Virus record (IMG/VR): IMGVR_UViG_3300025678_000001
Length of the DNA stretch: 64,000 bases
Source: a virus
Lineage: Duplodnaviria; Heunggongvirae; Uroviricota; Caudoviricetes
Direction: 5' to 3' (one strand)
The notes under the pieces were generated by a model. It saw only the letters and a list, made by a program, of their open reading frames with translations, searched no databases and was not told the DNA's origin. The translations under genes were made by a program, and so were the position numbers. How positions within the stretch are numbered: the first letter of the stretch is position 1; each line of letters opens with the position of its first letter. This document shows, piece after piece, positions 6,151-58,811 of this stretch.

Positions 6151-6300
6151 AGGATACGAAATATTGGATAACCCTGAAACACAGGGTGTTTGAGTTTAGA
6201 AAGTCTACAATATAATATACGGATTTTCTACAGGAAAAACAAAAAACCACCCCTGGAAAGAGGTGGTTTGTCATGCATCCGTACCGTGTGTTGCGATGGG

Positions 6301-6762
6301 TTAGCTTTCTGTGTCTACAAGCTTGAAGAGAACATGGTAGTTTTCAGTGGTTTCTACTTTCTCAAGAGCTTTAAGACTGATCTTTTTATACTCAATCTCC
6401 TTCTCTGTCTGCAGAAGTTCGTTGAACTCTGTTTCAAATGCTTGAAAATCAGGGTTTTTGATCATCGGTAACTGGTTATCCTCAGTAGAGTTTGGATCTT
6501 CTACCAGGGCAGGAATACTGATGTCTCCAGTCATGTCGTTTGGTTTACCGTACTTTTTGATCAGTTCATTCCTGAACTCGTCAATAGCAGCTTTTTCAAC
6601 CGCAGTCTTTTTAGCCAGATCGGTCAGCCAGTATTTGGTTACCAGCGGAAGCTTCTCGTTCAAAATACCTGTCTGGAGAACCTGACCGGTAGCAAGACGA
6701 ACTCCGTTTAACTCTGCATCCAGGTTATAGATTTCGTACAGTTTAAGGGTGATTTTTTCCAT
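6301..6762 (-). CDS. hypothetical protein
   Basis: 153-aa ORF flanked by TTGTAGAAC motif regions. Confidence 0.5.
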   Translation of the reverse strand: MEKITLKLYEIYNLDAELNGVRLATGQVLQTGILNEKLPLVTKYWLTDLAKKTAVEKAAIDEFRNELIKKYGKPNDMTGDISIPALVEDPNSTEDNQLPMIKNPDFQAFETEFNELLQTEKEIEYKKISLKALEKVETTENYHVLFKLVDTES

Positions 6763-6781
6763 GGTTTTTTATAGTTTAAAC

Positions 6782-6804
6782 TTCTACAAAGTTAACTTGT
6801 AGAA
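6782..6804. promoter_or_regulatory. dyad operator TTCTACAA-N7-TTGTAGAA
   Basis: perfect 8-bp inverted half-sites separated by AGTTAAC, intergenic between minus-strand genes. Confidence 0.4.
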
Positions 6805-6832
6805 CTCACTCTTTTTAAACAACTTTATCACA

Positions 6833-20277: not shown

Positions 20278-21897
20278 TTAGAAAGAACCACCAGTGATCG
20301 GGTTCCTCATCACGATCTTCAGCACTTTTGTCGGGTCTTTTACCCAGATTGCCGGCATGGTCTGAGTCATGAACACGCGGTAACCGTTGAAGTTACCAGA
20401 GCTTTGGAAGCCTTGTGTACGACCCATGTAGTCCATAGTACCGTTCTGGTAGAACCACTTCAGTTGATTGTCCCAAGACAGCTTCAGAAGGAAGATGTTG
20501 TCGTTGGTGTTATCAGTGATGTCGAAGATGATGAAGTTGTAGCTAGACAGCGGGAAACCGTCGATGATCGGGTTCTCGATGTCATTTGTGTGTACGTTGT
20601 CGAACGCAGGGTTCAGGACAAACTTCACGTTAGCTAAGAACGGAATAACGTACTGAGTGTAAGCGAAACCGAAGTTCAGGTCCATACCCTTACCAGTGAT
20701 AGCTCCGATTTCAGAAGCGTTGATCACCAGACCAGAGTTGATAGCCTCACGTTTGATGGCTTCGTTTACCAGGCGCATACCACCCATACCGGTCTGAACG
20801 ATAAGCTGACGCTTAGGATCCGGACCTTGGAACTCAACCTTACCGTTGAAGAAGTTGAAGATCTCACTCTTGAACAGATCCAGGTTGAAGGAACCTTTGT
20901 TGTAGATGCGTTTGAAGCTGTTATCCAGCTGTTTCCACAGACCCACAGAAAGGCGGATATCGTCCGGACCGTCTTGCTTAACCTTACCACCTTGACCCCA
21001 CATTAGGTAAGTCTCGATGTCGTTAGCAATCTTAGTCAGGTGAGCAGCTTCCAGGGTTGTAAGGAAGGAGCGAGACAGTTGACCAGATTGATAAGCTTTC
21101 TTCACGTAGTCCTTACCCATCTTGGCAGCCATGTCTTCCAGGTTGGTAATAGAAGGATCTACAGTCTTATCGAAGTTTCTCCACAGCTCGATTACCGGTA
21201 CAGTACCGTCGGCTTTCATACCACCTTTCAGCATCAGGTCAGCGCGACTGGAGATGCTGTAGTGTACGTGAGCTTCTGCACCACCAACGTAGTTGTAGAA
21301 CTCACGGAAACCTGCAGACACATTACCGATATCAGAGAAACGTTCACCGTACTCACCGCGGGCAGAACCCTTACGGAATACTTTGGTACCAACACGCAGG
21401 TACTTGTTATCCAGGTACTTAGCGTTGTCGTTGTTTACCAGTTGCACAGTGTAGATGAAACCATCACCAGCAGGGATGATATCATCTTGAGTGATATACA
21501 TCTCAACACCGTTGTACTTGTCGTAGGTGATGATATCACCATGACCAAAGGAACGTTTGTTGATCTTGATCTTGAAGGTCTGGCCGTCAACACCTTTTGT
21601 AGTGTTTGAAGACTCAATATCCTCCACGATGTAAGGAAGGTCCTGGGCTACAGGTACCTGCCACTTATACTCACCTCTGGAGTTATCTACAGAGATAACA
21701 TTCTTACCACCGAAAGAGGACATCTGGTACAGAGGCATTTCTACCTTTTGTGCCATAGCCCACAGGTCAACAGGTCCGAGATCAGTCGGCTCTGCTGATT
21801 TCAGCAGGTTAGAGAGGTGGTATGAGTCTACGTGTGAGCTAGTTTGATAGCTGGTATCCCGTAGAAATATACCATTGTTTAAAACAGGGGTTGCCAT
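20278..21897 (-). CDS. putative major capsid protein
   Basis: 539-aa ORF immediately downstream of the scaffold-like gene in the portal-scaffold-capsid order; followed by a long structured gap. Confidence 0.5.
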   Translation of the reverse strand: MATPVLNNGIFLRDTSYQTSSHVDSYHLSNLLKSAEPTDLGPVDLWAMAQKVEMPLYQMSSFGGKNVISVDNSRGEYKWQVPVAQDLPYIVEDIESSNTTKGVDGQTFKIKINKRSFGHGDIITYDKYNGVEMYITQDDIIPAGDGFIYTVQLVNNDNAKYLDNKYLRVGTKVFRKGSARGEYGERFSDIGNVSAGFREFYNYVGGAEAHVHYSISSRADLMLKGGMKADGTVPVIELWRNFDKTVDPSITNLEDMAAKMGKDYVKKAYQSGQLSRSFLTTLEAAHLTKIANDIETYLMWGQGGKVKQDGPDDIRLSVGLWKQLDNSFKRIYNKGSFNLDLFKSEIFNFFNGKVEFQGPDPKRQLIVQTGMGGMRLVNEAIKREAINSGLVINASEIGAITGKGMDLNFGFAYTQYVIPFLANVKFVLNPAFDNVHTNDIENPIIDGFPLSSYNFIIFDITDNTNDNIFLLKLSWDNQLKWFYQNGTMDYMGRTQGFQSSGNFNGYRVFMTQTMPAIWVKDPTKVLKIVMRNPITGGSF

Positions 21898-26074: not shown

Positions 26075-26380
26075 TTAGTTATTTGTATACAGAGAGGGTG
26101 TAGGATGATCAGACCCCTGAGCTGTTAGTGAGCTTAAAGCTTGAACATTGTTACTATACAGAATACCACTATCTCTGGGCTGCCAGGGAGCAGTTGTAGG
26201 AGTATTCCACGGATGATTAGGAGCAGCCGTACCTGGTATATTGATCGGCAGAAGAGGTTTGATACCCAGTGATTCTTCTTCTTTTAACAGCAGAATAGCT
26301 TCTTCCAGAGTAAGGGAGCTTTCTTTGATCAAACGAGAAAGTATAGCTACTTTCTGGGAATGTAATGTACTGTTTTCCAT
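26075..26380 (-). CDS. hypothetical protein
   Basis: 101-aa ORF between the terminase-like and portal-like genes. Confidence 0.4.
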   Translation of the reverse strand: MENSTLHSQKVAILSRLIKESSLTLEEAILLLKEEESLGIKPLLPINIPGTAAPNHPWNTPTTAPWQPRDSGILYSNNVQALSSLTAQGSDHPTPSLYTNN

Positions 26381-28578
26381 TATCTTAGGTTTTTAAAGGG
26401 TGTTCTGGGTGGTGTCATACTTTTGGAACCCCCTTCTGATGACCCAATATGTCTAAAAGGTCTCCAATTTAATTTACTGATTTTTTGGGAGTTCTCCAAC
26501 TTTTGTTCCACTCGTTCTACACGTTTGGTGTATCCACGGTTGGCTTGTTGAACCTTGGCAAAGGCTATGAGTGCACAGAAAGATACCAGACGGTCCACGT
26601 TGAGTCCATCATAGTAAGCTTTCATCTCTTTGAGCAGCATTGGATCCGGAATACGTTCCACGCCGTAGGTTGTCCTTACAATGGTCCCGTCTTCCTTTGT
26701 TTCGTGGTCCAGTTCTTCCTTGGTAAACTCGATACCGTAGCTTAGGATGTTACCCTTGAATAGGGTCCCTACGTTTTTCCAACCATATTCCTGGAAGACG
26801 TTTCGGTTGGCTCCCAGGTCCTTCAGAAACAGAATCATGTCTTTTGGCACCAGGTACCGCTGTTTCTTTTTAGAGATCATGTACTGGATAAATAAGGCCA
26901 CGTTATTCTCCACAACTGTCCAAGCATTATACCACTCGATCATCAACTCTAGGCGTTCATGAGTTTTGTTGATGTCATCAAAACGTCCACACCAGCTAGC
27001 CACGATCTTATCCCGCTCTATGGTGTTCTCTACTTTACCATCACCATAGTCCTTAATGACTTCAACCGGGTTTTTATAGATGTAGATCGAGCATAGGGAA
27101 TCTGAGGTTGTAGTCTTACCTTCTCCTACCGGGTCGACAGACGCGTAGTACATTCCAAAAGGAGGGTCTTTAACCGGTCGTTCGTAGATACAGATGACCC
27201 CTTCTTTGTTTTCCATCTTCTTTGGTACAGGAAACTCCATGATCGGAGTCTTCCTGGAGGGAGAGTCAATGATCTTCCCTTCAGCATTTCTGGAGAGCTC
27301 TAGGTATTCAACAGGGTACTCTTTATCAGCGATCCGTCGTTCTTGTTGTGCAACTAGGTGTGCAGGGAATACGCTTACTTTACGCGTATCAAACGCTTCC
27401 TCGATGTTTCTGGGGTGCTGAGAAAGCTCTAGCTGGTAAGCTTGAGGGGTAAGATCTCGTTTGGCCTTCTCAAAGTACTTATCCAGGGCCTCTAAGGCTT
27501 TTTCTACCAGAGAGTTTCCAAATTCATCCATGTATGGAGGCATGGACCACTGTTCTGGTATAAAGAGCCCGGTTACTCTGATTGTACCATTCTTGTCTAC
27601 AAGATTGGACTCTACACCATAGAACCCGTTTTCTTCCGGATGCATAATGTATTCTTTCATGGGTTCACACTGATCCAGGTCACCCACGGAACCAGCAGCT
27701 ATGAACTGACCGGTAATGATATGACCAGACTTCAGGGCCGGCTTGATATAACCATAGGTCAGGTCCATCTTGGGTGCGATACCGCCCTCTTCATGGAAGA
27801 AATAAGTTACCGGTCCACCAACGCCATTTGTAGGATCCTTTTCAAAAGAGTAACCAGCAATGGTACTCTTAAGACCCTTATAGGTATCACGGCCATTTAT
27901 ACGTACTTTGATCTGCTGGTTCCAGGCAAATACCTTATCAGGTTCGGCCGGTCGGTACCAGGCAGTATGCTCGTTCAAGAAGTTTTTGTATTCATCCAGG
28001 AACTTCCAGGAGCCTTTCTCGTTTATATAGTCTTTCAGTGAGGCACCGATCTTACAGATACTACCGGATTCAAACCAGTAAGTATTGATCAGTTTTGCCA
28101 TATGAAAGTAAGAAGAAGCTATCTGACGCTTCTTTAGGATGATAGCATGTTTGTAGTTCAGCTCAGCCAGATGTTCATACAAGGCCATATGATACTGGGC
28201 ATCACGAACCTTGGCAAAGTCAAACTTCTTTTCTTCCTTGTCATAGATAGGAAGAAAGTTGAGCCACATGTAGTAGTCCCTGGTTATATACCAGGTCTTT
28301 GACTTGTTCTTTACAATGATGCCGTTTCTGCACTTATTCTTCTGGTCATCCCAGTAGGTCATGAAGTCTTTGCTCTTCAGTGGAGCATTGCAGTAGTAAC
28401 CCTGGGTCTGAAACTTACGAGCCTCAGCATTAAAGATCCTGGTTACTTCATCAAACTCATACTTGCCTGGTTCTTTGAATAGAAAGAACAAGAAATCCCG
28501 GAACTCCTCCCGGGTATTAAAAGTGGTTACGAACCAGTTACCGTTTTCGTAGGTAGGGACTTGTTTAAAGGGGGTCAT
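26380..28578 (-). CDS. putative terminase large subunit
   Basis: 732-aa ORF; C-terminal nuclease-like segment (YYASVDPVGEG...SLCSIYIYK...TVVENN); position upstream of the portal. Confidence 0.55.
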   Translation of the reverse strand: MTPFKQVPTYENGNWFVTTFNTREEFRDFLFFLFKEPGKYEFDEVTRIFNAEARKFQTQGYYCNAPLKSKDFMTYWDDQKNKCRNGIIVKNKSKTWYITRDYYMWLNFLPIYDKEEKKFDFAKVRDAQYHMALYEHLAELNYKHAIILKKRQIASSYFHMAKLINTYWFESGSICKIGASLKDYINEKGSWKFLDEYKNFLNEHTAWYRPAEPDKVFAWNQQIKVRINGRDTYKGLKSTIAGYSFEKDPTNGVGGPVTYFFHEEGGIAPKMDLTYGYIKPALKSGHIITGQFIAAGSVGDLDQCEPMKEYIMHPEENGFYGVESNLVDKNGTIRVTGLFIPEQWSMPPYMDEFGNSLVEKALEALDKYFEKAKRDLTPQAYQLELSQHPRNIEEAFDTRKVSVFPAHLVAQQERRIADKEYPVEYLELSRNAEGKIIDSPSRKTPIMEFPVPKKMENKEGVICIYERPVKDPPFGMYYASVDPVGEGKTTTSDSLCSIYIYKNPVEVIKDYGDGKVENTIERDKIVASWCGRFDDINKTHERLELMIEWYNAWTVVENNVALFIQYMISKKKQRYLVPKDMILFLKDLGANRNVFQEYGWKNVGTLFKGNILSYGIEFTKEELDHETKEDGTIVRTTYGVERIPDPMLLKEMKAYYDGLNVDRLVSFCALIAFAKVQQANRGYTKRVERVEQKLENSQKISKLNWRPFRHIGSSEGGSKSMTPPRTPFKNLR

Positions 28579-33920: not shown

Positions 33921-34048
33921 TAAACAAAACTCAGCAGTAGTAGTTGTCTTTAGAGTGGACTATTTCTCACTGAGGTAAGTAGATTACTAAGGGGTAATAC
34001 TTAGTAAAATTAATCAGTGTCAGCTTATATACAACTGATTCTTATCAG

Positions 34049-34120
34049 TTTCCTCCCCTGGGTACGATCCAGGAACTGCAGGGCCAAAACCTGCCGTGAT
34101 ACCAGTTTCACCAAAAGGAA
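34049..34120 (-). tRNA. tRNA-Gln(UUG)
   Basis: T-arm CCTGG/ATCGTAC/CCAGG, anticodon arm GCAGG-UUUUGGC-CCUGC, acceptor pairs with two GU. Confidence 0.6.
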
Positions 34121-34126
34121 ATAGTG

Positions 34127-34198
34127 GGTGTAAGGACGGTACCGACCCGTCTTCCCCAGGTCCACAACCTGGTGCATCACCTTAATGCTTCAAACACC
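34127..34198 (-). tRNA. tRNA-His(GUG)-like, encoded G-1/C73, two U-U mismatches in the acceptor stem
   Basis: anticodon arm CCAGG-UUGUGGA-CCUGG; T-arm GACGG/GTCGGTA/CCGTC; extra 5-prime G opposite C73. Confidence 0.45.
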
Positions 34199-34203
34199 AT
34201 AAG

Positions 34204-34275
34204 AGCCTTCTACCGGAACCGACCCGGTAAGTCCTGTTTACAAGACAGGCAGTTTTCCAGTTAGCTTAAGAAGGC
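34204..34275 (-). tRNA. tRNA-Thr(UGU)
   Basis: perfect 7-bp acceptor (GCCTTCT/AGAAGGC), T-arm ACCGG/GTCGGTT/CCGGT, anticodon loop CTTGTAA. Confidence 0.65.
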
Positions 34276-34280
34276 CTGTG

Positions 34281-34353
34281 TGGTACAGAGTGGTTACGAT
34301 CCACTTCCCCCGGTTTTTCAGACCGGTGCTTCTACCAAGTTAGCTTCTGCACC
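34281..34353 (-). tRNA. tRNA-Phe(GAA)
   Basis: T-arm AGTGG/ATCGTAA/CCACT, anticodon arm CCGGT-CTGAAAA-ACCGG, acceptor with one GU. Confidence 0.65.
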
Positions 34354-34428
34354 AAGTAGGACTTTGTCAAAGCCGGCCACTCCTGCACAAAGAGGAGACC
34401 AGCTTGATCAGGTGTCCTGAAACCTTTG

Positions 34429-34501
34429 AGGTGGGTGGGAAACTCGAAGCCCCGTATGACTGTTTTGCGGACAGTTGCCTTACCATCTTGGCGAACCCAC
34501 C
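34429..34501 (-). tRNA. tRNA-Cys(GCA)-like (C33, weak T-stem)
   Basis: acceptor GGTGGGT/ACCCACC, D-arm GCC-AAGATGGTAA-GGC, anticodon loop CCGCAAA, T-loop TTCGAGT. Confidence 0.4.
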
Positions 34502-34507
34502 ATGTTG

Positions 34508-34579
34508 TCTAGCTGATCTGGATCGAACAGACGTAATCTTGCTCCCAAAGCAAGTGCCTTACCGCTAGGCTACAGCTAG
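34508..34579 (-). tRNA. tRNA-Pro(UGG)
   Basis: acceptor CTAGCTG/CAGCTAG, D-arm GCC-TAGCGGTAA-GGC, anticodon arm CTTGC-TTTGGGA-GCAAG, T-loop TTCGATC. Confidence 0.7.
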
Positions 34580-34617
34580 AAAAAGAAAACCCCCAAACCG
34601 TTTTACCAGTCTGGGGG
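34578..34617 (-). terminator. rho-independent terminator (minus strand)
   Basis: CCCCCA...TGGGGG hairpin followed on the minus strand by TTTTCTTTTTCT. Confidence 0.5.
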
Positions 34618-34757
34618 TTAGTATTTTGATTTTGTACTTCTTAACTCGTTGCTATGATCACTGTACATACACCAACACAACTACCCCCGCAGACCGGACA
34701 AGGTTGCGTAAACTGGGTAAACTGTGTATGGGTAGTAATCTTCTTCATCTACAATAC

Positions 34758-34789
34758 AAAGATACTACTTTTTGTAGAACTACCAAAAT
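34758..34789 (-). promoter_or_regulatory. minus-strand promoter (-33 TTTTG, N19, -7 TATCTTTG) overlapping the TTGTAGAAC box
   Basis: reverse complement of caaagata (34758-65) and caaaa (34785-89); ~130 nt upstream of the 34578-34617 terminator. Confidence 0.45.
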
Positions 34790-34797
34790 CTTTTTGC

Positions 34798-34870
34798 ACG
34801 GGCCCAGGGAAACGATCCCTGTCCATCCGAGGTTTTGGAGACCTGGTGCATACCATTATGCTGGCCCATG
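34798..34870 (-). tRNA. tRNA-Trp(CCA)-like
   Basis: T-arm CAGGG/ATCGTTT/CCCTG; anticodon loop CTCCAAA with a 27-43 mismatch; acceptor with GU. Confidence 0.45.
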
Positions 34871-34875
34871 TATGT

Positions 34876-34959
34876 GGGAAGTGAGTGAGTCGAACACCCC
34901 GAGTCCGTAGACAGCTGGTTTACAATCAGCCCCGCTACCACTTACGGTATAACTTCCCC
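34876..34959 (-). tRNA. tRNA-Tyr(GUA), class II (long variable arm)
   Basis: acceptor GGGAAGT/ACTTCCC, anticodon loop TTGTAAA, T-arm GGGTG/TTCGACT/CACTC, 84 nt. Confidence 0.55.
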
Positions 34960-35040
34960 TATTTCGCATATCCAGTCAGTAGTCTTTCCGTCAAAAGCTA
35001 TCAACCAGAGTATGCCGTTCATATTAACGATGTACATGCA

Positions 35041-35123
35041 GAGAGCAGAGTAGTCGAAACCCACCCCGGTTAAGGAGCCCACTGTTTAGCAAACAGGTCT
35101 GACCACCTAGTCAGTTTACTCTC
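35041..35123 (-). tRNA. tRNA-Ser(GCU)-like, class II, T-arm poorly formed
   Basis: anticodon arm CCTGT-TTGCTAA-ACAGT, D-arm CTGAC-TAGGTG-GTCAG, acceptor GAGAGTA/TGCTCTC. Confidence 0.4.
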
Positions 35124-35129
35124 TAGATG

Positions 35130-35221
35130 CGGAAGGCAGAGGAACCGACCCCCATGCCCGTGTAAGGGGCAGCCTAGTTTTCAAGACTAGTCGCCACTCC
35201 AATGTAGCTGCATTACCTTCC
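35130..35221 (-). tRNA. tRNA-Ser(UGA), class II
   Basis: acceptor GGAAGGT/GCCTTCC, anticodon arm CTAGT-CTTGAAA-ACTAG, variable-arm hairpin, T-loop GTCGGTT. Confidence 0.6.
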
Positions 35222-35226
35222 ATGTA

Positions 35227-35313
35227 GTACCGGTGGAGGGGGATGATCCCACACGATCCTTTCGGATCACAAGATTTTAAGTCTTGCGTGTCTGCCTATT
35301 TCACCACACCGGC
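35227..35313 (-). tRNA. tRNA-Leu(UAA), class II
   Basis: anticodon arm CAAGA-CTTAAAA-TCTTG, variable-arm hairpin GATCC-GAAA-GGATC, acceptor GCCGGTG/CACCGGT. Confidence 0.55.
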
Positions 35314-35394
35314 AGTTGTCTGGACTCTCACCATAGCAGTCAGGGATTTCAGGTCCCCAGGTGTGCATTCAATTCGTCCCACCTTCTGACATCG

Positions 35395-35477
35395 TACCTC
35401 TGACAGGCCTCGAACCTGCACCCGTTTCCGGACTAGATCCTAAGTCTAGCGTGTCTCCCAAGTTTCACCACAGAGGT
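35395..35477 (-). tRNA. tRNA-Leu(UAG), class II
   Basis: perfect acceptor ACCTCTG/CAGAGGT, T-arm GCAGG/TTCGAGG/CCTGT, anticodon arm CTAGA-CTTAGGA-TCTAG. Confidence 0.65.
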
Positions 35478-35518
35478 ATAAAAACCAAAATCCCGACCAG
35501 GAAAACCTAATCGGGATT
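35478..35518 (-). terminator. rho-independent terminator (minus strand)
   Basis: 8-bp stem AATCCCGA/TCGGGATT followed on the minus strand by TTTGGTTTTTAT. Confidence 0.5.
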
Positions 35519-35673
35519 GGAAACTTTTTCAGTAACTACATACCTCACCCGATTGGTTTATGCAACCAATACAGACTGAGTGAGGATAGAGTAAACTGCT
35601 TCATAAAAATTTGGTGGATGGTCACCCCACTTGTTTTAATCTAAACAAGAAATCATCGGTCGGTTACGTTAAC

Positions 35674-35735
35674 TTCTCAGCTTGAACGCCTGTCGTGTGA
35701 CCTTTCAGCTTTCACGCCTGTTAAGAGGCTTTACC
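35674..35735. repeat. imperfect direct repeat CAGCTT(G/T)(A/C)ACGCCTGT x2, spaced 29 nt
   Basis: cagcttgaacgcctgt and cagctttcacgcctgt inside the short promoter-to-terminator unit. Confidence 0.35.
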
Positions 35736-35748
35736 GACCATCACAATA

Positions 35749-35780
35749 CAAATATACAACTCTTTTGGAGTTCTACAAAA
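35749..35780 (-). promoter_or_regulatory. minus-strand promoter (-33 TTTTG in TTTTGTAGAAC, N19, -7 TATATTTG)
   Basis: reverse complement of caaatata (35749-56) and caaaa (35776-80); transcribes a ~230-nt ORF-free segment ending at the 35478-35518 terminator. Confidence 0.45.
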
Positions 35781-35788
35781 TATTTTTG

Positions 35789-35864
35789 TGGAGACTCTGG
35801 AACTTGAATCCAGCTGATATCCTGCTTGCAAGGCAGGTGTCCACTCCTGGCAGACCCAGTCCCC
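35789..35864 (-). tRNA. tRNA-Ala(UGC)
   Basis: T-arm CTGGA/TTCAAGT/TCCAG, anticodon arm CCTGC-CTTGCAA-GCAGG. Confidence 0.6.
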
Positions 35865-35870
35865 ATGCTG

Positions 35871-35942
35871 TACTCTCGGGTGGTAACGATCCACCTACCT
35901 TCTCCGTATCAGGGAGCTACTCTACCATTGAGCTACGAGAGT
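35871..35942 (-). tRNA. tRNA-Ile(GAU)
   Basis: perfect acceptor ACTCTCG/CGAGAGT, T-arm GGTGG/ATCGTTA/CCACC, anticodon loop CTGATAC. Confidence 0.65.
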
Positions 35943-35947
35943 ATAAG

Positions 35948-36020
35948 TTGATCCGGGTGGGTACGATCCACCGACCTTGACGTTATGAGCGTCCTGCTAC
36001 TACCACTGAGCTACGGATCA
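35948..36020 (-). tRNA. tRNA-Met(CAU)
   Basis: perfect acceptor TGATCCG/CGGATCA, T-arm GGTGG/ATCGTAC/CCACC, anticodon loop CTCATAA. Confidence 0.6.
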
Positions 36021-36025
36021 GTATG

Positions 36026-36099
36026 CGGTCCGTACCGGGATCAAACCGGTCATCTCTGGCGTGACAAGCCAGCGTCTTCATCGTGCAGACCCACGGACC
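36026..36099 (-). tRNA. tRNA-Asp(GUC)
   Basis: perfect acceptor GGTCCGT/ACGGACC, T-arm ACCGG/TTTGATC/CCGGT, anticodon arm CTGGC-TTGTCAC-GCCAG. Confidence 0.7.
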
Positions 36100-36105
36100 A
36101 AATAG

Positions 36106-36180
36106 TACCCCCACCGGAGATCGAATCCGGTTCTTCACCGTGAAAGGGTGGCGTCCTGTACCTTCTAGACGATAGGGGCA
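36106..36180 (-). tRNA. tRNA-Glu(UUC)
   Basis: the sequence GCCCCTATCGTCTAGAAGGTACAGGACGCCACCCTTTCACGGTG...TTCGATC... closely parallels canonical bacterial tRNA-Glu. Confidence 0.65.
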
Positions 36181-36259
36181 AATTGGAGGCTTAGGACTCC
36201 ATCATCCTCCTTGAGATCCCGGCGTCCTTCTACTTTTTATAGTACGGATCTCTTTTACG

Positions 36260-36331
36260 AGCAGCATCTCGGGGTCGATCCGAGTTCTCCGGTTTGGAAG
36301 ACCGGCACATCAGCCCTAATGCTTATGCTGC
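36260..36331 (-). tRNA. tRNA-Gly(UCC)
   Basis: perfect acceptor GCAGCAT/ATGCTGC, T-arm CTCGG/ATCGACC/CCGAG, anticodon arm CCGGT-CTTCCAA-ACCGG. Confidence 0.7.
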
Positions 36332-36445
36332 ATGAAAGAACAGAGCTCCAGGGGAATCTCACCCGTCTGTCCGGAACAGACCTCACTGCCTTTTACTATG
36401 TACGGTATTTACTCGTACACAACAGCTACCTGAAGATGATCTTGG

Positions 36446-36515
36446 TTGCGGGGCCGGGATTTGAACCCGGGAAACACGGCTTATGAGACCGGTCGGCCAC
36501 CTGGCTCCCCACAAT
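36446..36515 (-). tRNA. tRNA-like gene, anticodon arm unresolved
   Basis: canonical T-arm CCGGG/TTCAAAT/CCCGG and acceptor pairing TGTGGGG/CCCCGCA, but the interior is 2 nt short of a standard cloverleaf. Confidence 0.3.
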
Positions 36516-36522
36516 AAAACTG

Positions 36523-36595
36523 CGGACTCTCCGGGGAACGATCCTGGAACCTTCACCTTAACAGGGTGCCGCTCTACCAGTTGAGCTAAGAGTCC
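36523..36595 (-). tRNA. tRNA-Asn(GUU)
   Basis: perfect acceptor GGACTCT/AGAGTCC, D-arm AGCTCAACTGGTAGAGCG, anticodon loop CTGTTAA, T-loop ATCGTTC. Confidence 0.7.
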
Positions 36596-36596
36596 G

Positions 36597-36668
36597 TATA
36601 CTTAGAAGGATTCCAACCTTCACTTTCAGTTTAGAAGACTGACGTGCTAAGCATTACACCATAAGTAC
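36597..36668 (-). tRNA. tRNA-Arg(UCU)
   Basis: T-arm GAAGG/TTGGAAT/CCTTC, anticodon arm TCAGT-CTTCTAA-ACTGA. Confidence 0.65.
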
Positions 36669-36676
36669 ATATCTGG

Positions 36677-36747
36677 AAGACCCGGAGGTAGTCGAAACCC
36701 CATCATCACGTTCGTAGCGTGATATCCTTCCATTGAACGACGGGTCC
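36677..36747 (-). tRNA. tRNA-Arg(ACG)
   Basis: acceptor GGACCCG/CGGGTCT, T-arm GGGGT/TTCGACT/ACCTC, anticodon arm TCACG-CTACGAA-CGTGA. Confidence 0.65.
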
Positions 36748-36802
36748 TTGTTAAGACCGTCTTCGGTAATATGTACTGTAGTGTGTCATGTCTTCTGTCT
36801 GG

Positions 36803-36876
36803 TAGCTCCTATCCGGGTCGAACGGATGCATTCTCGGTATGTAACACCGAAGCTCTACCACCTGAGCTAAGGAGCT
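36803..36876 (-). tRNA. tRNA-Val(UAC)
   Basis: perfect acceptor AGCTCCT/AGGAGCT, D-arm TAGCTCAGGTGGTAGAGCT, T-arm ATCCG/TTCGACC/CGGAT, anticodon loop GTTACAT. Confidence 0.7.
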
Positions 36877-36882
36877 ATTTGA

Positions 36883-36932
36883 AGCTCATTATTGAGCTTG
36901 AATGAGCTGAATATTGAGCTTAATCGGCTCAT
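36883..36932. promoter_or_regulatory. palindromic operator AGCTCA-N4-TGAGCT plus three phased TGAGCT half-sites
   Basis: AGCTCATTATTGAGCT at 36883-98; TGAGCT again at 36903, 36915; GGCTCA at 36927; lies between tRNA-Val and tRNA-Lys. Confidence 0.4.
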
Positions 36933-36940
36933 ATATCTTG

Positions 36941-37012
36941 TTCCCCCGTCCGGTAACGATCCGGACCCCACGGATTAAAAGTCCGTTGCCTACACCTGTT
37001 TGCTACGAGGGA
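36941..37012 (-). tRNA. tRNA-Lys(UUU)
   Basis: T-arm TCCGG/ATCGTTA/CCGGA, anticodon arm ACGGA-CTTTTAA-TCCGT, acceptor with one GU. Confidence 0.65.
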
Positions 37013-37194: not shown

Positions 37195-37235
37195 TGACCT
37201 ACAATACAAATATACGTTAGTTCTACAACATGACC
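37195..37235 (-). promoter_or_regulatory. conserved CTACAATACAAATATAC / GTTCTACAA box (candidate minus-strand promoter at the head of the tRNA array)
   Basis: -7-like TATATTTG on the minus strand (reverse complement of 37207-14) adjacent to GTTCTACAA. Confidence 0.4.
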
Positions 37236-37239
37236 AAAT

Positions 37240-38326: not shown

Positions 38327-38458
38327 AACTAAGCTGTTTTAAAAGTGAGGGGGCTTTTACACCCCCTTGGGCTAAGGCAGGTCTGTCAAGTTTCATGAGT
38401 TCTCTACAAATATAAGAAACCAGACTCCAGTTCTCCAAATATTTCTACAAGTTTCCTT

Positions 38459-46453: not shown

Positions 46454-46524
46454 TTTGTTTACACTTTGTAGAACTAAGAAAAACGTCTACATTTGTTCTA
46501 CATCTTTAAAGTTTACATGTTACA
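46454..46524 (+). promoter_or_regulatory. iteron-like cluster of GTT(C)TACA repeats with a TTGTAGAAC box upstream of the wHTH gene
   Basis: GTTTACA, TTGTAGAAC, GTCTACA, GTTCTACA, GTTTACA, GTTACA within 70 bp. Confidence 0.35.
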
Positions 46525-49825: not shown

Positions 49826-50013
49826 TCTGATACTGAGAGCTAGTAAGTAATCTATGGGGAAGTCCGTCGAACAGTTTTTCACTTAGTACCGTCCCCGTGT
49901 GATAATAGGCGTAGCCGGTCTGGGAACCGTGCATAAACCCAGTAGATCCACTCGAAGTAGTGTGAAAGCTATCCTCAGTATAGACCTTGGCTTGGAACAC
50001 TTGTGCCAGTAAA

Positions 50014-50086
50014 CAGGTGTACTCAGGGAGTAGCTCAGATAGGAGAGCATCCGGGCGACCCCCGGAAGGTCGGTGGTGCAAGTCCA
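50014..50086 (+). ncRNA. degenerate tRNA-like element
   Basis: canonical D-arm TAGCTCAGATAGGAGAGCA and T-stem GGTGG/CCACC, acceptor 6 of 7 pairs, but anticodon loop GCGACCC (C33) and T-loop TGCAAGT are non-canonical. Confidence 0.3.
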
Positions 50087-50113
50087 CCCTTCCTAACTAA
50101 ACCAAAGAAACCT

Positions 50114-50914
50114 ATGAGTTACGCCATTAAACTTTTATTCTTTTTAGGTAGTTGTATTCTTGCATTTGTAGCCGGTAGGCTTACAAGCAGTCTGTCTTAC
50201 CACTGGAGTCAAGTGGATGGGCCGAATCAGGCCGTTATAGTTTCACCCAATGACAGTACCACACAAGTCAACGGTTTGGTACAGGGTGTCTATCATTTTG
50301 AGTTAGCAGTTACCGACCCTCAAGGAGCTACAGGACGGGATACCATGATGGTTACCGTACTTCCTGGAGTTCTTCCTATCAAACTGGTTTACTTCAAAGC
50401 GTACCCGCTGGCTGATGTAAACATGATCAAGTGGAAAACATCTGAAGAGATAAACATAAAAGAGTTTATCCTGGAATCCTCTACAGACGGTGTTCATTTT
50501 TACGGTCTCTATCATACGTTTGCTATCGGAGCTACACCAACCTCTCCTTCTGAGTATGACTATGAACATAAGTTCCCAGGAAGAGAGCAGTATTACAGAC
50601 TTAAGTCTATTGAGACATCTGGTACTTATACATACAGTGATGTTGTAAAAGTAACCAGATCTATTTCGACATCTATTTGGTCAAACAACCCTGTTACATC
50701 GACTCTTAATGTTACCATAAACGTAGATAATGCTACTACAGCTAACTTCTACATTTATGATGCTACCGGAAGAAGAATGGCATTCTATACGTACAATCTA
50801 AGTCCTGGTAAGAACAGTTTCAGTTATCATACTGGTCAGTATGCTTCTGGTCTGTATATCATTAAAGTTGACGTAGGAGGTATTATCTCAACCAAAAAAT
50901 TCGTCAAACAATGA
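50114..50914 (+). CDS. secreted protein with Ig/PKD-like domain and a Type IX secretion system C-terminal sorting domain
   Basis: signal peptide MSYAIKLLFFLGSCILAFVAG; C-terminus ...NSFSYHTGQYASGLYIIKVDVGGIISTKKFVKQ matches the Por/T9SS CTD pattern; the ORF-track start at 50003 is rejected because it lies within a tRNA-like element. Confidence 0.65.
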   Translation: MSYAIKLLFFLGSCILAFVAGRLTSSLSYHWSQVDGPNQAVIVSPNDSTTQVNGLVQGVYHFELAVTDPQGATGRDTMMVTVLPGVLPIKLVYFKAYPLADVNMIKWKTSEEINIKEFILESSTDGVHFYGLYHTFAIGATPTSPSEYDYEHKFPGREQYYRLKSIETSGTYTYSDVVKVTRSISTSIWSNNPVTSTLNVTINVDNATTANFYIYDATGRRMAFYTYNLSPGKNSFSYHTGQYASGLYIIKVDVGGIISTKKFVKQ

Positions 50915-53290: not shown

Positions 53291-53956
53291 ATGACGCATT
53301 ACGGCCTGGGTCTTTACCCGGGCCTCTTTTTCTTAATCCAAAAAACCAGAAACATGAGTCAAAAGGAAGACTTGAGTATAGCCGGATCAGGTAGTCCAAT
53401 CTCACTTAAAAAGTTCTTACTAAAACATCCTGATGCCAAACCTCTGACTGTCTTGGTTGACGGTACAGGGTTAGGTATAGCTAAGGATGATTCAGGTACA
53501 ATATACATCACTCGTGAAGATTGTGCCCAACAAGCCCTGTACTACTGTAAAGAAGTATTTGATGGAGTAAGAGTTCCTGCTTACCTATTCAGGTACCTGA
53601 ACTACATGATGTTTGATGACGAGCGTTGGAATGACGATAAACAAGTAGCCCAGGCTTTCATTGACGGTACAGTAAACGATCAGTCAGAAGAGTACCTCCG
53701 GGTCAAAAACTTCTTGACCTATGCAGAACACAATCCAGAAGGATTACAGGTCATAGGTCTTATTCAGCTTATTGGAGGTAGTCTGAACATGGCTCGTAAA
53801 CGTAACTCAGGTATCCGGATCTATCTTGAACACCCTGAGACAGCCTTGCATCCAAAAAGACAATCACGTTTTATAAGCTTGTTTTACAAGCTTCAAAAAG
53901 ATTATGGTTATGAGGAGGTTCAACCAGCGCATGACGTGGATGGTGACCAAGACTAG
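53291..53956 (+). CDS. hypothetical protein (may start at 53354, MSQKEDL)
   Basis: 221-aa ORF after a 0.7-kb ORF-free region. Confidence 0.45.
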   Translation: MTHYGLGLYPGLFFLIQKTRNMSQKEDLSIAGSGSPISLKKFLLKHPDAKPLTVLVDGTGLGIAKDDSGTIYITREDCAQQALYYCKEVFDGVRVPAYLFRYLNYMMFDDERWNDDKQVAQAFIDGTVNDQSEEYLRVKNFLTYAEHNPEGLQVIGLIQLIGGSLNMARKRNSGIRIYLEHPETALHPKRQSRFISLFYKLQKDYGYEEVQPAHDVDGDQD

Positions 53957-54689: not shown

Positions 54690-54810
54690 GGGCTTATTAG
54701 TTCAGTGGCAGAACACCGGGTCCGATGAGGCGGCTTTTATTAAGGTTATTGCAACCCCAAAAGAAAACCGAAACCCCGGGAGGTCACCAGTTCAAATCTG
54801 GTATAAGCCC
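54690..54810 (+). tRNA. tRNA-like gene with a ~47-nt structured insertion replacing the anticodon loop
   Basis: G(-1)+GGCTTAT acceptor pairing with ATAAGCC+C73, D-arm TA-GTTC-AGTGGCA-GAAC, T-arm ACCAG-TTCAAAT-CTGGT, anticodon stem CCGGG/CCCGG flanking 54 nt containing its own hairpin. Confidence 0.45.
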
Positions 54811-55084: not shown

Positions 55085-55498
55085 AAATATAGTACAGAGG
55101 AGGTAGGCTTGGAAGTAGCCATAAGGTAGAACCTTACTCTTGGGTTGAGGCTGGCTGAGATCAGATATACATCTAAGAGTCCTTTAAAGAGTTGCAAGTA
55201 GGACCCGTAACTGATTATGTGACGACTAAAAGTGGTAAAACTACAGGAGATATAGTCCTGATGAAAAGAAGTAAGCGTCAATAGGACTGAGTAGCTGGAT
55301 TATTATACACTCCTTAGAGCATTTGGTGTAACAACACACTCTGTACTTTTTTCTTAGCTCCGGGGATCACACCATCCGTCAATCTGGTTGTGTTATGTTT
55401 AAGCAAGCTTAAAAGAGCAGCTCCATTGGTCTGTTTACTGTCTGGTGAGCTCAGACTTTAAAAAGTAGAATGGGTCAACTGGAAAAGCTGCAGAAATA

Positions 55499-55530
55499 TT
55501 TGTAGAACTCCTAAAAAAGTTCTATATTTG
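55499..55530 (+). promoter_or_regulatory. Bacteroidetes-type promoter (-33 TTTG within TTTGTAGAAC, N20, -7 TATATTTG) driving the tmRNA-like gene
   Basis: TTTG at 55499-55502, TATATTTG at 55523-55530, RNA 5-prime GGGCCCG at 55540. Confidence 0.5.
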
Positions 55531-55539
55531 TTCTACACT

Positions 55540-56195
55540 GGGCCCGTCTGGTTTAGACAGCAGAGTGAGTGGTAACTACACATGTGGACAAAGTAAGAAC
55601 GTCCTAAAATACTTACAAAACAATAAACGCTATGACTAAGTCTGAGCGTGTAGCAGAAGGTGAAGCTATCCTGGCTTCTATCTTCGTTGATGAGGCTGTA
55701 GCAGCCTGATCCTACGGGGGATCTATCCCTGGCAACAGAAAATAGAACTGAAGTCTTATATGAGCATACAGAACTAAACGGGACATATGCCGTAAAGTAA
55801 TCCGTGTATAAGACGTAGAGTGGCTCCCTTAATAGTCTAGGCTGACCTAGAGCATTCTAACTGAAGCATGGTATACAGGGGGTGAAGCCGTGCAACCCAG
55901 CTATGGGTTACCAGAATGATACAGTTACAGATGAGCGTAGTATGTGAAAACATTCAAATAAGTATCTGTTATAAAAAGTATAGTGACTGAATGTTTGGTA
56001 GTAATAGCATGTTTTCCTGGTTATGTCAAAACTAGGTGGTGGAGTAGGCGGTCTTGATTGGACGCCCCCAAACTACGGTGCAGATGAAGTGACGCAGTCT
56101 TTTAGACTTGATCCAAAGTAATCAGTACTAAACATGTAATACGTTGTAGTTATTGACTTCTTTGTTGGACACGAGTTCGATTCTCGTCGGGTCCA
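55540..56195 (+). ncRNA. ssrA: candidate phage-encoded tmRNA (ssrA-like), unusually long (~650 nt)
   Basis: 5-prime GGGCCCG-UCUGGUUUAGAC parallels E. coli tmRNA 5-prime GGGGCUG-AUUCUGGAUUCGAC; 3-prime GGAC-ACGAG-UUCGAUU-CUCGU-CGGGUCC-A parallels GGAC-GCGGG-UUCAACU-CCCGC-CAGCUCC-A; the 5-prime and 3-prime 7-mers pair (one GU); internal frame ...ASIFVDEAVAA followed by UGA at 55707; consensus promoter upstream and rho-independent terminator downstream; no ORF of 60 aa or more. Confidence 0.45.
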
Positions 56196-56221
56196 CTCTC
56201 TCAAAGCTAAGCAATCGTTAG

Positions 56222-56257
56222 ACCCCCGGTGGTTTCTACTACTGGGGTTTTCTTTTT
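56222..56257 (+). terminator. rho-independent terminator after the tmRNA-like gene
   Basis: 7-bp stem CCCCGGT/ACTGGGG (one GU) with a 10-nt loop, then TTTTCTTTTT. Confidence 0.6.
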
Positions 56258-56590
56258 AAACAAGTTACTCAACATATTTTCTTAGAGATGTTCTCTTTGA
56301 AAATCTGGATACGTCTTTATCCAAGTCCCGTGGGGAAGGTCATTGAGACCATAGACTGTCACAAGAGGAAAAAACTGGAAGATTCTTACGGCAGTTAAGA
56401 TATCCTGACTTCAATGTCGAAGTAACACTTGTCGTAGACGGGTTTAAAAAAGAGTAGTACAATTCTAGATATGTACGTTGATCCTGAGTATTTATACAAT
56501 ATACCCGCTGATACAGAAGTATCAGAGACGTAAACTCCTGTCTGACGACCAGTACGTTAAACTGGTCTTTTTACATCCTTAACCAAGCAT

Positions 56591-57200: not shown

Positions 57201-58241
57201 ATGAACAATGTATGGTCACAACGTGGGAGCAGTTTTATCCCCGAAGAAATCACCCACCAGGTACAGAAGTTACCGGTTGGGATTTATAAAGTTCAAGAGC
57301 ATCCGGCTCTGAAGTTCCTGTACTTGGATCGTGTTCAGGACAGTTTCCCTTTCCCGTATAAAGTATACGGTATTGAAAGGCCGTTCATCGACCGCGTGAA
57401 AAAGTCTTATGAAAACACCACAGGAAACTTTGGTGTACTGCTTAACGGTATGAAAGGTACCGGTAAGACTGTCACAGCTGAAATCATCTGTAACGAGATG
57501 AACCTACCGGTTATCATCATCCCCAGGCACTATGACAGTATAGTGTCCTTCTTAAATAACATACAGCAGGATGTTATTGTTTTTATCGACGAGTTTGAGA
57601 AAATCTATGATCGGTACCAGAACAGTCTTCTGACGATCATGGATGGAGCCATGAAGACCAAACACCGTATTTTCTTCCTGCTGACTACCAATGAAACCAG
57701 GATTGATTCAAACTTGTTACAACGTCCGAGCCGTATCCGGTACGTAAAAATGTTCAGTGACATGAAACTGGAAGTCATCATGGAAGTAGTAGATGATCTC
57801 TTAAAGCACAAACACCACAGAGAGTCTGCTATCAAGATGATCTCCGAGATGCCGATCATCACCATGGACCTGGTAAAAGCTGTGATCAACGAGATCAACA
57901 TCCACGATGAAGATCCTTACGAGTTCCGTGAGATCTTCAACGTACACGCAGATCGTTCTGAACTGTACAACATTTTTGAGATCAAAGATGGAGAACGTCT
58001 GGAGATCAAAACGTTTGCTACGATCAGTCCAAGCTGGCTCAGTGAGTACAGTGTAGGTGAAGACTTCGAGATCAATGGAAGACCCATTGGTTACATCAAA
58101 TCCGTTCTGTCTAGCCGCCAGCTCCTGGTTGCTGAAAGAGAGGACGAAGATGATGCATCCACAGAAGTAGCCCGTCTGATCCTGCTGGAACCGGCTGTAA
58201 AAACACATAAAGCTTTTGCCGGAAGCTCTCTGGCATTTTAA
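57201..58241 (+). CDS. AAA+ ATPase
   Basis: Walker A GMKGTGKT, Walker B VIVFIDEFEK, sensor/arginine region LLTTNETRID...RPSRIRY. Confidence 0.75.
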   Translation: MNNVWSQRGSSFIPEEITHQVQKLPVGIYKVQEHPALKFLYLDRVQDSFPFPYKVYGIERPFIDRVKKSYENTTGNFGVLLNGMKGTGKTVTAEIICNEMNLPVIIIPRHYDSIVSFLNNIQQDVIVFIDEFEKIYDRYQNSLLTIMDGAMKTKHRIFFLLTTNETRIDSNLLQRPSRIRYVKMFSDMKLEVIMEVVDDLLKHKHHRESAIKMISEMPIITMDLVKAVINEINIHDEDPYEFREIFNVHADRSELYNIFEIKDGERLEIKTFATISPSWLSEYSVGEDFEINGRPIGYIKSVLSSRQLLVAEREDEDDASTEVARLILLEPAVKTHKAFAGSSLAF

Positions 58242-58244
58242 GCC

Positions 58245-58811
58245 ATGTTGACAAAAGAAGAATATAAAGAACTTAAAGATTCCTTCTTCAACTTTATGAA
58301 GAAGCTTCTGGTCGAACAAGGTGACCTGAATCCCTGTATTGTACTAATGGGAAAGAAGCTTGCTAATGCCTTGGGAGAAGAAGAAGAATCAAACGCAGTA
58401 GTTTACGTTCCCATTCCTGGTAAGTACATGAAGACAGAGAAGACCAAGGAAGAATTTGTAACAGAAGTAATACCAAAAATGGGAACAGAAATACGTCAAT
58501 ACTTTTCTATCTACGCAGTAGCATGGGTAGCAGAAGCCTGGGTACGTGAAGTTCATCAAGGTGAAGTTCCTGTTAACTGGAAAGATCTTCCTATTCAAAA
58601 AGAAGTTTTGATCATTACGATTGAAACCAAGGATGCCACAGAAGGTATTACATTTGAGATCAAACGAAACGGGAAAGAAGTAAACGCAGAAGGTGAGCTG
58701 ATTGACCACATCGAACTGATCGAAGATATACGAGCCAATGGGTTTATTCCTTCAGGAGGACGTTTCAGTGGTTTGTACAAACAATTCACAGAATCTGGGA
58801 CAAGCTCTTAA
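58245..58811 (+). CDS. hypothetical protein
   Basis: 188-aa ORF directly after the AAA+ gene. Confidence 0.5.
   Translation: MLTKEEYKELKDSFFNFMKKLLVEQGDLNPCIVLMGKKLANALGEEEESNAVVYVPIPGKYMKTEKTKEEFVTEVIPKMGTEIRQYFSIYAVAWVAEAWVREVHQGEVPVNWKDLPIQKEVLIITIETKDATEGITFEIKRNGKEVNAEGELIDHIELIEDIRANGFIPSGGRFSGLYKQFTESGTSS

Follow-up and report, generated by a model that had tools for sequence, protein, structure and literature searches.

Does an uncultivated phage carry its own gene for transfer-messenger RNA (tmRNA), and if so, where does the unusual length of that RNA come from? The question is raised by a stretch of 64,000 nucleotides (nt) from the tailed-phage record IMGVR_UViG_3300025678_000001 of IMG/VR, here called the window. 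A reading made from the letters alone (the sequence-only reading) had proposed that the window encodes a tmRNA about twice the usual length, with a promoter and a terminator of its own. We find a complete one-piece tmRNA gene at window positions 55540–56195 on the plus strand, 656 nt long (659 nt with CCA). The proposal stands on three results: a covariance-model match above threshold, a family of covarying homologues, and a tag frame conserved as coding sequence. The identity of the gene, its architecture, its family and the purifying selection on its helices and tag peptide are established by the analysis. We further consider it very likely, from these sequence features, that 55540–56195 is a functional phage-borne ssrA gene of an uncultivated tailed phage with a probable Bacteroidota host.

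A search with a tmRNA covariance model had been recommended in the sequence-only reading. The Rfam model RF00023 (gathering threshold 47 bits) matches 55540–56198 with 60.7 bits (E = 3e-21), and the match runs from model position 1 to 374, that is, end to end and above the threshold. The tmRNA-like 5' and 3' ends proposed earlier are present letter for letter on reading 55300–56500. The 5' end, GGGCCCGTCTGGTTTAGAC, occupies 55540–55558, and the 3' end is composed of TTGGAC (56165–56170), ACGAG (56171–56175), TTCGATT (56176–56182), CTCGT (56183–56187), CGGGTCC (56188–56194) and a final A (56195). The full RNA folds better than its shuffled versions (z −2.74), with the terminal helices present in the minimum-energy structure. 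The parts follow the standard gene order; a two-piece (permuted) order is absent, and RF04321 gives 12.9–15.8 bits against a threshold of 47.

The gene is not alone. Ten further distinct full-length homologues (514–684 nt) and two partial ones were found on IMG/VR and metagenome contigs, making 11 distinct full-length sequences with the window copy and with the spliced form of one relative, L010. The family was reached by way of loci around relatives of the AAA ATPase encoded next to the tmRNA, which led to L010, and then by way of a conserved 23-mer, CTATCCCTGGCAACAGAAAATAG; the 23-mer gave six more IMG/VR contigs, and a 20-mer taken from it gave six metagenome contigs. RF00023 scores 64–81 bits at nine loci (L027–L031, L033, L034, L037 and L038; eight distinct sequences) and 57.9 bits at L039, and the ten intron-free loci other than the window copy all lie above the threshold (57.9–81 bits). 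Near and distant nucleotide searches with the locus returned no match among 50,697 GenBank phage records, and the exact 5'-end and 3'-end motifs gave no hit in IMG/VR.

The program ARAGORN, also recommended earlier, gave a divided answer. On the 64-kb window it reports 17 tRNAs and no tmRNA, and it misses both the unaltered gene and a version with a 200-nt deletion. Once nt 207–470 of the RNA (264 nt, window 55746–56009) are deleted in silico, leaving a 393-nt RNA, it does call a tmRNA; the boundaries of the tRNA-like domain, the resume codon and the tag peptide all agree with ours, and the tag is labelled 'not identified'. The isolated RNAs of L027, L039, L034 and spliced L010, which are intron-free or spliced and 514–550 nt long, are missed as well, and none of the 11 distinct full-length family members is found (L010 was tried both as gene and as spliced RNA). 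The family thus escapes ARAGORN because of the length of its RNAs.

Covariation was measured on an alignment of eight distinct sequences, in which the 5' 92–97 nt were joined to the 3' 76 nt, and over a structure of 46 pairs, three of them pseudoknot pairs. In this structure 95.4% of cells pair, and both partners have changed in 24 of the 46 pairs. Covariation scores 0.388, as against 0.163 in shuffles, none of 500 shuffles reaches the observed value on any measure, and slid controls pair at 43–48% only. RNAalifold, run on the same alignment, arrives at the canonical tRNA-like domain together with helix 2 and the first stem of pseudoknot 1, and places compensatory changes at 21 of 45 pairs. 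The terminal helix, for which the sequence-only reading had asked support in a fold or alignment, is supported in the alignment: all seven pairs of the acceptor stem hold in all eight sequences and four of them have changed on both sides; the window has GGGCCCG/CGGGUCC where most relatives have GGGGGUG/CACCUCC. The five pairs of the T-arm are 100% paired (four changed on both sides), and in helix 2 the corresponding figures are 92–100% of cells paired and 11 of 26 pairs changed on both sides.

Within the acceptor stem, the terminal 7-mers pair with a single G-U, as had been claimed, and it is the third pair. This G3:U is invariant in all eight aligned sequences while the neighbouring pairs vary. 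A G3:U70 wobble pair is the alanine identity element recognized by alanyl-tRNA synthetase. In the D-loop analogue, the GG and the GAC that follows are invariant across the family. Pseudoknot 1 is kept at one spot by three unrelated sequence solutions: that of the window, that of the L027 type (GGACC/GGUCC with GUAG/CUGC) and that of the L029 type (AGUGG/CCACU with UGGUUCU/GGAAUCA). Between its end and the resume codon the window copy has 12 nt.

The sole open frame is the tag frame, which has 26–27 codons in every member. The sequence-only reading had recognized its close, ...EAVAA-TGA at 55709, and had named 55632–55709 as the span of a possible small protein; the close is right, and the tag frame starts one codon before the ATG at 55632, at GCT 55629. 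The C-terminal end of the tag is ...ILASIFVDEAVAA. Throughout the family the frame begins with GCN or GGC directly after (U/C)AAAC and always ends in (V/I)AA and a stop, and in most relatives the tag reads (A/G)(M/K/T)TQS(E/D)RVAEGEAILASIFGEVA(V/I)AA. Over the first 19 codons, 3 sites vary at the first codon position, 2 at the second and 9 at the third. Changes beginning with codon 3 are either synonymous or conservative (K/Q, D/E, I/L), and conservation of the peptide extends over the first 19 residues, x-x-T-(K/Q)-S-(E/D)-R-V-A-E-G-E-A-I-L-A-S-(I/L)-F. A small hairpin holds the last codons; it reads GGCUG-UAG-CAGCC in the window copy and, among most relatives, GCAG-UAG-CUGC, and two of its changes, both synonymous and in Ala codons, are mutually compensating.

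Could 55632–55709 instead be an ordinary small protein gene, MTKSERVAEGEAILASIFVDEAVAA, lying on an mRNA whose tRNA-like ends are coincidental? The window does have an ATG at 55632. The lack of a Shine-Dalgarno motif there says nothing either way, because the genes of this phage generally do without one (3 of 34 have a motif of that kind). In the relatives, however, codon 2 is AUG, AAG (L010, L028, L030, L031 and L037) or ACG (L034), and a frame that varies in this way is not an ATG-initiated gene. The ATG is replaced in six relatives, yet conservation reaches one codon further upstream, to GCN/GGC, and the flanks of the frame form a covarying tRNA-like domain. We find an ordinary small protein scarcely credible at this locus.

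The same frame bears on a different alternative, in which the RNA works mainly as a tRNA-like decoy or competitor of the host tmRNA that blocks or re-routes host trans-translation. Given the tags of Bacteroidota, that of the phage is probably of another type than its host's, and a tmRNA-like RNA of DS6A that lacks a tag frame has been reported as a decoy of the host tmRNA (PMC11915505). Here, however, the 26-codon frame is open in all 11 distinct sequences and its substitutions fall mainly on third positions, which argues for selection on a translated peptide; an RNA acting purely as a decoy could do without one. The family likewise retains pseudoknot 1 and its distance from the resume codon. 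A decoy seems to us quite improbable.

What, then, makes the RNA so long? The excess length of the window copy lies in its variable central (pseudoknot) domain and is not an intron. The tRNA-like domain, helix 2, pseudoknot 1 and the spacing are all normal-sized, and the tag exceeds a typical one by about 50 nt. From the stop codon to the 3' strand of helix 2 there are 413 nt in the window copy and 265–435 nt in the relatives. Common to the family within this interval are the 36 nt after the stop and a module of about 80 nt at 56011–56088 that includes ACGGUGCAG; the consensus fold of the module has 17 pairs, four of them changed on both sides, which is modest support. Between relatives the central domain differs by whole blocks, and the family can thus be said to have a fast-evolving mosaic central domain.

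In the window copy, the block 55746–56009 resembled neither a relative nor any other DNA compared, and it matched no Rfam family, group I and group II introns included, even at E ≤ 10. It has no repeat elsewhere in the window and no terminal repeats. Nested folding of the central region (55707–56125) is no better than that of shuffles (z −0.30), and a crude search of the region for H-type pseudoknots gave five candidates against 5.1 in shuffles; the central domain of this copy cannot be mapped onto pseudoknots 2–4. Of the fold that had been suggested as a check, the acceptor and T-arm pairing and a pseudoknot upstream of the tag hold, and candidate pseudoknots downstream of the tag do not rise above shuffles. 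A riboswitch within the tmRNA, as in phage Melnitz, was also considered and rejected; the match to wcaG is 16 bits against a threshold of 42.

A block of this kind invites the explanation that an intervening sequence, whether an intron or an insertion of mobile or degenerate kind, makes up the extra length and is either removed or non-functional, the working RNA being of ordinary size. The 264 nt without a homologue and the central region without a structural signal would fit such an origin, as would the acceptance by ARAGORN of the 393-nt RNA left after in-silico removal, and relatives in the family do gain group I introns. Against this, the block lacks the Rfam match and the repeats, in the window or at its ends, that were looked for. 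The intron-free relatives are also long (514–684 nt), with their excess in the same domain and in mosaic blocks, and the known tmRNA introns all lie in the T-loop (PMC11915505). We consider an intervening sequence in the window copy improbable, and we read the block as part of an enlarged central domain.

The suggestion that the length comes from an insertion or intron thus fails for the window copy, in which the T-loop is intact, and proves correct for two relatives, L010 and L035, which have a group I intron in the T-loop. In both genes the intron interrupts GGGUU|CGA between the second and third loop nucleotides (in L035 the split follows GGGUU). In L010 (IMGVR_UViG_3300016665_000106, 5979–7319) the intron matches RF00028 with 85.5 bits and separates exon 1 (5979–6486) from exon 2 (7299–7319) by 812 nt, for a gene of 1341 base pairs (bp). 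It shows the U-G pair in P1 and the terminal G, and carries on the opposite strand an open reading frame (ORF) of 202 amino acids (aa) with no confident Pfam family. In L035 (Ga0209536_100610005) the intron scores 87.9 bits with RF00028 and has a LAGLIDADG-like ORF; the contig stops before the 3' exon. In a tmRNA database paper of 2025, all known tmRNA introns are reported to lie in the T-loop, with none above 700 bp and a longest gene of 1152 bp; the subsite at T-loop position 3 is listed for Bacteroidia only, with nine cases in Bacteroidota and none in Cyanobacteriota (PMC11915505). Group I introns with homing-endonuclease-like ORFs therefore also invade phage tmRNA genes, and do so at the T-loop site listed for Bacteroidia.

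A homologue of the 188-aa ORF at 58245–58811 lies about 1–2 kb downstream of the tmRNA, in the same orientation, at nine related loci, and the position of the gene is thus fixed within this group of phages. Among 185,579 reference species genomes of bacteria, the conserved 20-mer gave chance matches only, which argues that there was no recent capture from a host; its matches at L036, L040 and L042–L044 (three bacterial genome bins and two metagenome contigs) have no tmRNA around them and were discarded as chance.

These observations bear on whether the locus is a decaying relic, acquired by the phage as a host tmRNA gene or an attP-like fragment. In favour of this, integration at tmRNA genes is frequent (PMC11915505, PMC9004378), and the distribution of the gene among related phages is patchy. 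Against it, the gene is full length with both tRNA-like halves, and so is not the tRNA 3' fragment that the sequence-only reading had named as a possible pitfall; its helices are compensated and its frame is open across diverged copies; synteny is conserved in phage contigs, and no bacterial genome has the conserved motif. We regard a relic as very improbable.

Several points weigh against a functional tmRNA, and they should be set out together. The first is that CCA is not encoded; the acceptor stem is followed by A-CUC, and CCA would need to be added post-transcriptionally, as for most tRNA genes of the phage (15 of the 17 tRNA genes called by ARAGORN likewise lack an encoded CCA). An encoded CCA is not a requirement for membership, as many tRNA and tmRNA genes do without one. 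The second is that about 40% of the RNA is unexplained, because 264 nt have no homologue and the central region as a whole has no thermodynamic or covariation support. The window copy is also the most divergent member of the family, with the second-lowest RF00023 score (that of L039 is lower). The tmRNA is absent from the related phages L001–L009, L011 and Leptolyngbya phage Lbo-JY46, and a profile of the family's 5' 215 nt found no further copy in L001–L026, in Lbo-JY46 or in the rest of the window; missing as it is from several related phages, the gene is dispensable for the lineage. Finally, no SmpB was found in the 64-kb window, either by tblastn with an E. coli SmpB sequence or by Pfam scans of about 29 ORFs, and function would therefore rest on a host SmpB that accepts a diverged RNA.

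The coordinates of the RNA elements and of the transcription signals are collected in Table 1.

Table 1. Elements of the phage tmRNA gene and promoter-like and terminator sites, in window coordinates
Feature	Position	Strand	Remarks
Acceptor stem, 5' strand GGGCCCG	55540–55546	+	Pairs with 56188–56194; third base in G3:U
D-loop analogue UCUGGUUUAGA	55547–55557	+	Aligned to Rfam model positions 8–19
Helix 2, 5' strand	55558–55585	+	26 pairs with 56132–56167
Pseudoknot 1: stem 1 GGAC/GUCC, stem 2 GUAAG/CUUAC	55586–55616	+	H-type; covariation in alignable columns
Tag frame AMTKSERVAEGEAILASIFVDEAVAA, 26 codons	55629–55709	+	Resume codon GCU at 55629; stop TGA at 55707–55709
Element 3' of the stop: GGGA-UCUA-UCCC hairpin and 23-mer CTATCCCTGGCAACAGAAAATAG	55710–55745	+	Almost invariant in all members
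Central 264 nt, peculiar to the window copy	55746–56009	+	Most of the excess length; no homologue
3' module of central domain: hairpin CCUGG/CUAGG, second hairpin, invariant ACGGUGCAG	56011–56088	+	Islands common to relatives
Helix 2, 3' strand	56132–56167	+	Conserved GUACUAA(A/G)CAUG box directly before
T-arm ACGAG-UUCGAUU-CUCGU	56171–56187	+	5-bp stem; 7-nt UUCRAnU-type loop
Acceptor stem, 3' strand CGGGUCC, and discriminator A	56188–56195	+	CUC next; CCA not encoded
Promoter-like site: TTTG (55499–55502), 20 nt, TATATTTG (55523–55530)	55499–55530	+	Sequence pattern; transcription presumed
3' trailer, then intrinsic terminator: hairpin 56224–56247, T-run to 56257	56196–56257	+	Terminator scan
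Promoter-like sites	34757–34787, 35749–35779, 37207–37238, 38407–38439	-	Pattern scan
Promoter-like sites	46465–46495 (and the tmRNA site 55499–55530, listed above)	+	Pattern scan

Both of the transcription signals proposed in the sequence-only reading were recovered. The promoter-like TTTG-N20-TATATTTG ends 9 nt before G55540, and a 10-pair hairpin followed by TTTTCTTTTT begins 28 nt after A56195. The pattern TTTG-N18-21-TAnnTTTG occurs at six sites in the window against 0.85 expected, a number reached in none of 100 shuffles. On the minus strand, two of the sites (34757 and 35749) lie between tRNA genes and two (37207 and 38407) at 0.2 and 1.4 kb upstream of the tRNA array; the site of the tmRNA carries a TTGTAGAACT box, as do those of the array. 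The exact TTGTAGAAC(T) box is present in four of the six sites, and TTGTAGAAC with at most one mismatch occurs 58 times against 23 expected. An inverted repeat, GTAGAAC/GTTCTAC, flanks the promoters at the tmRNA and at 46465 and could be an operator. A promoter-like site directly upstream is found in the window copy only; in the relatives the 5' end abuts an ORF or a tRNA-like gene, which makes joint transcription followed by processing probable for their tmRNAs. All relatives (L010, L027–L034 and L039) have the terminator hairpin, with a covarying stem and a conserved loop, GUUUCUAC. The loop resembles the GTTCTAC half-site that flanks the promoter.

The closest described analogue of these sites appears to be the middle promoters of crAss-like phages. 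In phi14:2, an extended motif resembling −35 and −10 elements marks the middle genes, which are read by the host polymerase, and 12 of the 14 phages studied with it have this motif ahead of a tRNA gene (bioRxiv 10.1101/2020.03.07.982082). These phages are related to that of the window by their portal protein, and the TTTG...TAnnTTTG sites are likewise a repeated motif, in and beside the tRNA array and upstream of the tmRNA; the likeness is one of type and placement. By this analogy the sites may be used by the host polymerase.

The window is phage DNA. PHROGs profiles identify a major head protein (20278–21897), a portal (23316–26069), a large terminase (26380–28578), a tail protein and an exonuclease, and about 20 tRNA genes lie at 34048–37012 on the minus strand. 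Rfam calls three tRNA genes there beyond those of ARAGORN, at 34429–34501, 36106–36179 and 36446–36513 (minus strand; 45.2, 48.6 and 30.2 bits). In the structural block, an ORF of 1860 aa (9300–14882, minus strand) has no PHROGs or Pfam match; as the phage is distantly akin to crAss-like phages, it could be a giant virion protein of their kind, such as a virion RNA polymerase.

Which host does the phage infect? The ORF at 50003–50914 (plus strand, 303 aa) has a PKD domain and a C-terminal sorting domain of type IX secretion (PF18962, 35.1 bits against a threshold of 27). Type IX secretion is not known outside Bacteroidota and their close allies, and the protein, apparently built for export by a Bacteroidota-type secretion system of the host, is a useful host marker. 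The best cultured relative of the portal is that of Lbo-JY46 (31% identity over 98% of the protein), followed by those of Cellulophaga, crAss-like Bacteroides and Flavobacterium phages. The tRNA array of Lbo-JY46 (L047 18444–24443; PP438436.1 118444–124443) is syntenic with that of the window and in nearly the same order; a literature search found no paper on this phage. The promoter pattern TTTG-N18-21-TAnnTTTG corresponds to the Bacteroidota housekeeping promoter consensus. Lbo-JY46, in which the motif TTTGGTAG...TATCTTTG occurs nine times against 1.4 expected, is recorded with a cyanobacterial host, yet its motif matches the Bacteroidota consensus. The motif may thus be particular to the phage lineage, or else this group has odd host relationships, and because Lbo-JY46 shows a like motif the promoter argument for the host is weak when taken alone. 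Taken together, the secretion domain, the rarity of Shine-Dalgarno motifs, the relatives of the portal, the intron site of the relatives and the promoter pattern point to a Bacteroidota host as likely.

Neighbours of the tmRNA were also considered. The adjacent AAA ATPase (57201–58241) was rejected as a functional partner: it occurs without the tmRNA in L001–L009 and L011, and no homologue of it was found in the retrieved flanks of the other tmRNA loci, L027–L039. As the two occur apart in relatives, the ATPase is no dedicated partner. An ORF of 221 aa about 1.6 kb upstream of the tmRNA (53291–53956, plus strand) has below-threshold matches to AAA_15 (22.4 bits) and AAA_21 (16.8 bits), the latter being the ATPase domain of AbiEii-type toxins; no homologue of this ORF was seen in related loci. 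At 54691–54810 (plus strand) there is a tRNA-like gene (Rfam tRNA, 46.2 bits) that ARAGORN misses, with acceptor, D and T arms intact and 53 nt in place of the anticodon loop; a group I intron was dismissed as the identity of the insert, which is too short. Similar tRNA-like genes of 99–125 nt are found in L003/L004 (2474–2579), L008 (1292–1416) and L033 (12071–12169, minus strand), and that of one relative sits 7 nt upstream of the tmRNA of its phage.

From these features we infer how the RNA would be expressed and charged, on which SmpB it would depend, what would become of the tagged proteins and how the phage might benefit. Its own promoter, of the class found in and beside the phage tRNA array, would drive the gene, and transcription would stop at the hairpin terminator. 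Host enzymes would trim the ends and add CCA, and the alanyl-tRNA synthetase of the host, directed by the G3:U pair, would charge the RNA with alanine. Together with SmpB and EF-Tu of the host, the RNA would enter ribosomes stalled on broken or stop-less mRNAs; translation would resume at GCU 55629, adding Ala plus AMTKSERVAEGEAILASIFVDEAVAA. The ribosome would terminate at UGA and be released, and the ...AVAA end would send the product to Clp-type proteases of the host. The likely benefit is a continued supply of free ribosomes at a time when the phage breaks down host mRNA and makes heavy use of translation, the tmRNA belonging with the approximately 20 phage tRNAs in one translation-support set.

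A more far-reaching idea, which we regard as doubtful, is that the phage tmRNA re-purposes trans-translation, the tag being a phage-specific signal and the enlarged central domain serving to out-compete the host tmRNA. If this were true, the 19 conserved residues of the tag, which exceed by far a short C-terminal degron, could be a docking site for an adaptor or could alter the fate of tagged host proteins, and the enlarged central domain could bind factors that help the phage RNA against that of the host. In any case, the natural variants of 514–684 nt, which differ by central blocks, offer a ready-made series for asking what the domain is for, and a tag unlike that of the host would let phage-driven tagging be followed apart from host tagging in infected cells.

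How does the gene compare with known tmRNAs? Its order of parts is that of the standard one-piece tmRNA: an acceptor stem with G3:U, a D-loop analogue, helix 2, pseudoknot 1, a resume codon without a start codon, a tag ending in Ala-Ala, a stop, a central domain, a T-arm and a discriminator A. It differs from the standard in its 656 nt, its 26-residue tag, the absence of an encoded CCA and its location in a phage. In a survey of 274 sequences (2005), tmRNAs were typically about 350 nt and the longest was 425 nt (PMC1168896), and the most frequent tag length is 10 residues (PMC11915505). The family thus pushes the size of the standard tmRNA and of its tag well past the usual.

tmRNAs of phages are, as such, already known. 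They are carried by mycobacteriophages of cluster C1, by Cellulophaga phage Calle, which has a Bacteroidota host, 20 tRNAs and one tmRNA (PMC8776804), by the methylophage Melnitz in two-piece form (PMC9004378) and by huge phages (PMC7162821). ARAGORN was positive for tmRNA in 402 of 18,146 phage genomes, and tmRNA genes are thus recorded in about 2% of them (PMC9004378); a tmRNA database of 2025 holds 97,179 sequences, of which 79 are unique phage ones (PMC11915505). The surveys in PMC9004378 and PMC7162821 both called tmRNAs with ARAGORN, and since that program misses RNAs of the length described here, counts of phage tmRNAs are lower bounds. Like its known counterparts, the window copy is a complete ssrA on a lytic-type genome beside many tRNA genes. 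Unlike them, it has no nucleotide match in GenBank phages, is too long for ARAGORN and has a long conserved tag, and unlike the two-piece tmRNA of Melnitz it is in one piece. Compared with the intron-containing tmRNAs on record (PMC11915505), L010 and L035 share the site at T-loop position 3, whereas the window copy has no intron, the 812-nt intron and 1341-bp gene of L010 exceed the reported maxima, and the contigs are viral. What is new is that oversized standard tmRNAs form a lineage of their own in phages; they have a long, peptide-conserved tag, are invisible to ARAGORN and are absent from GenBank phages, and some members of the lineage carry introns of record length relative to those in PMC11915505.

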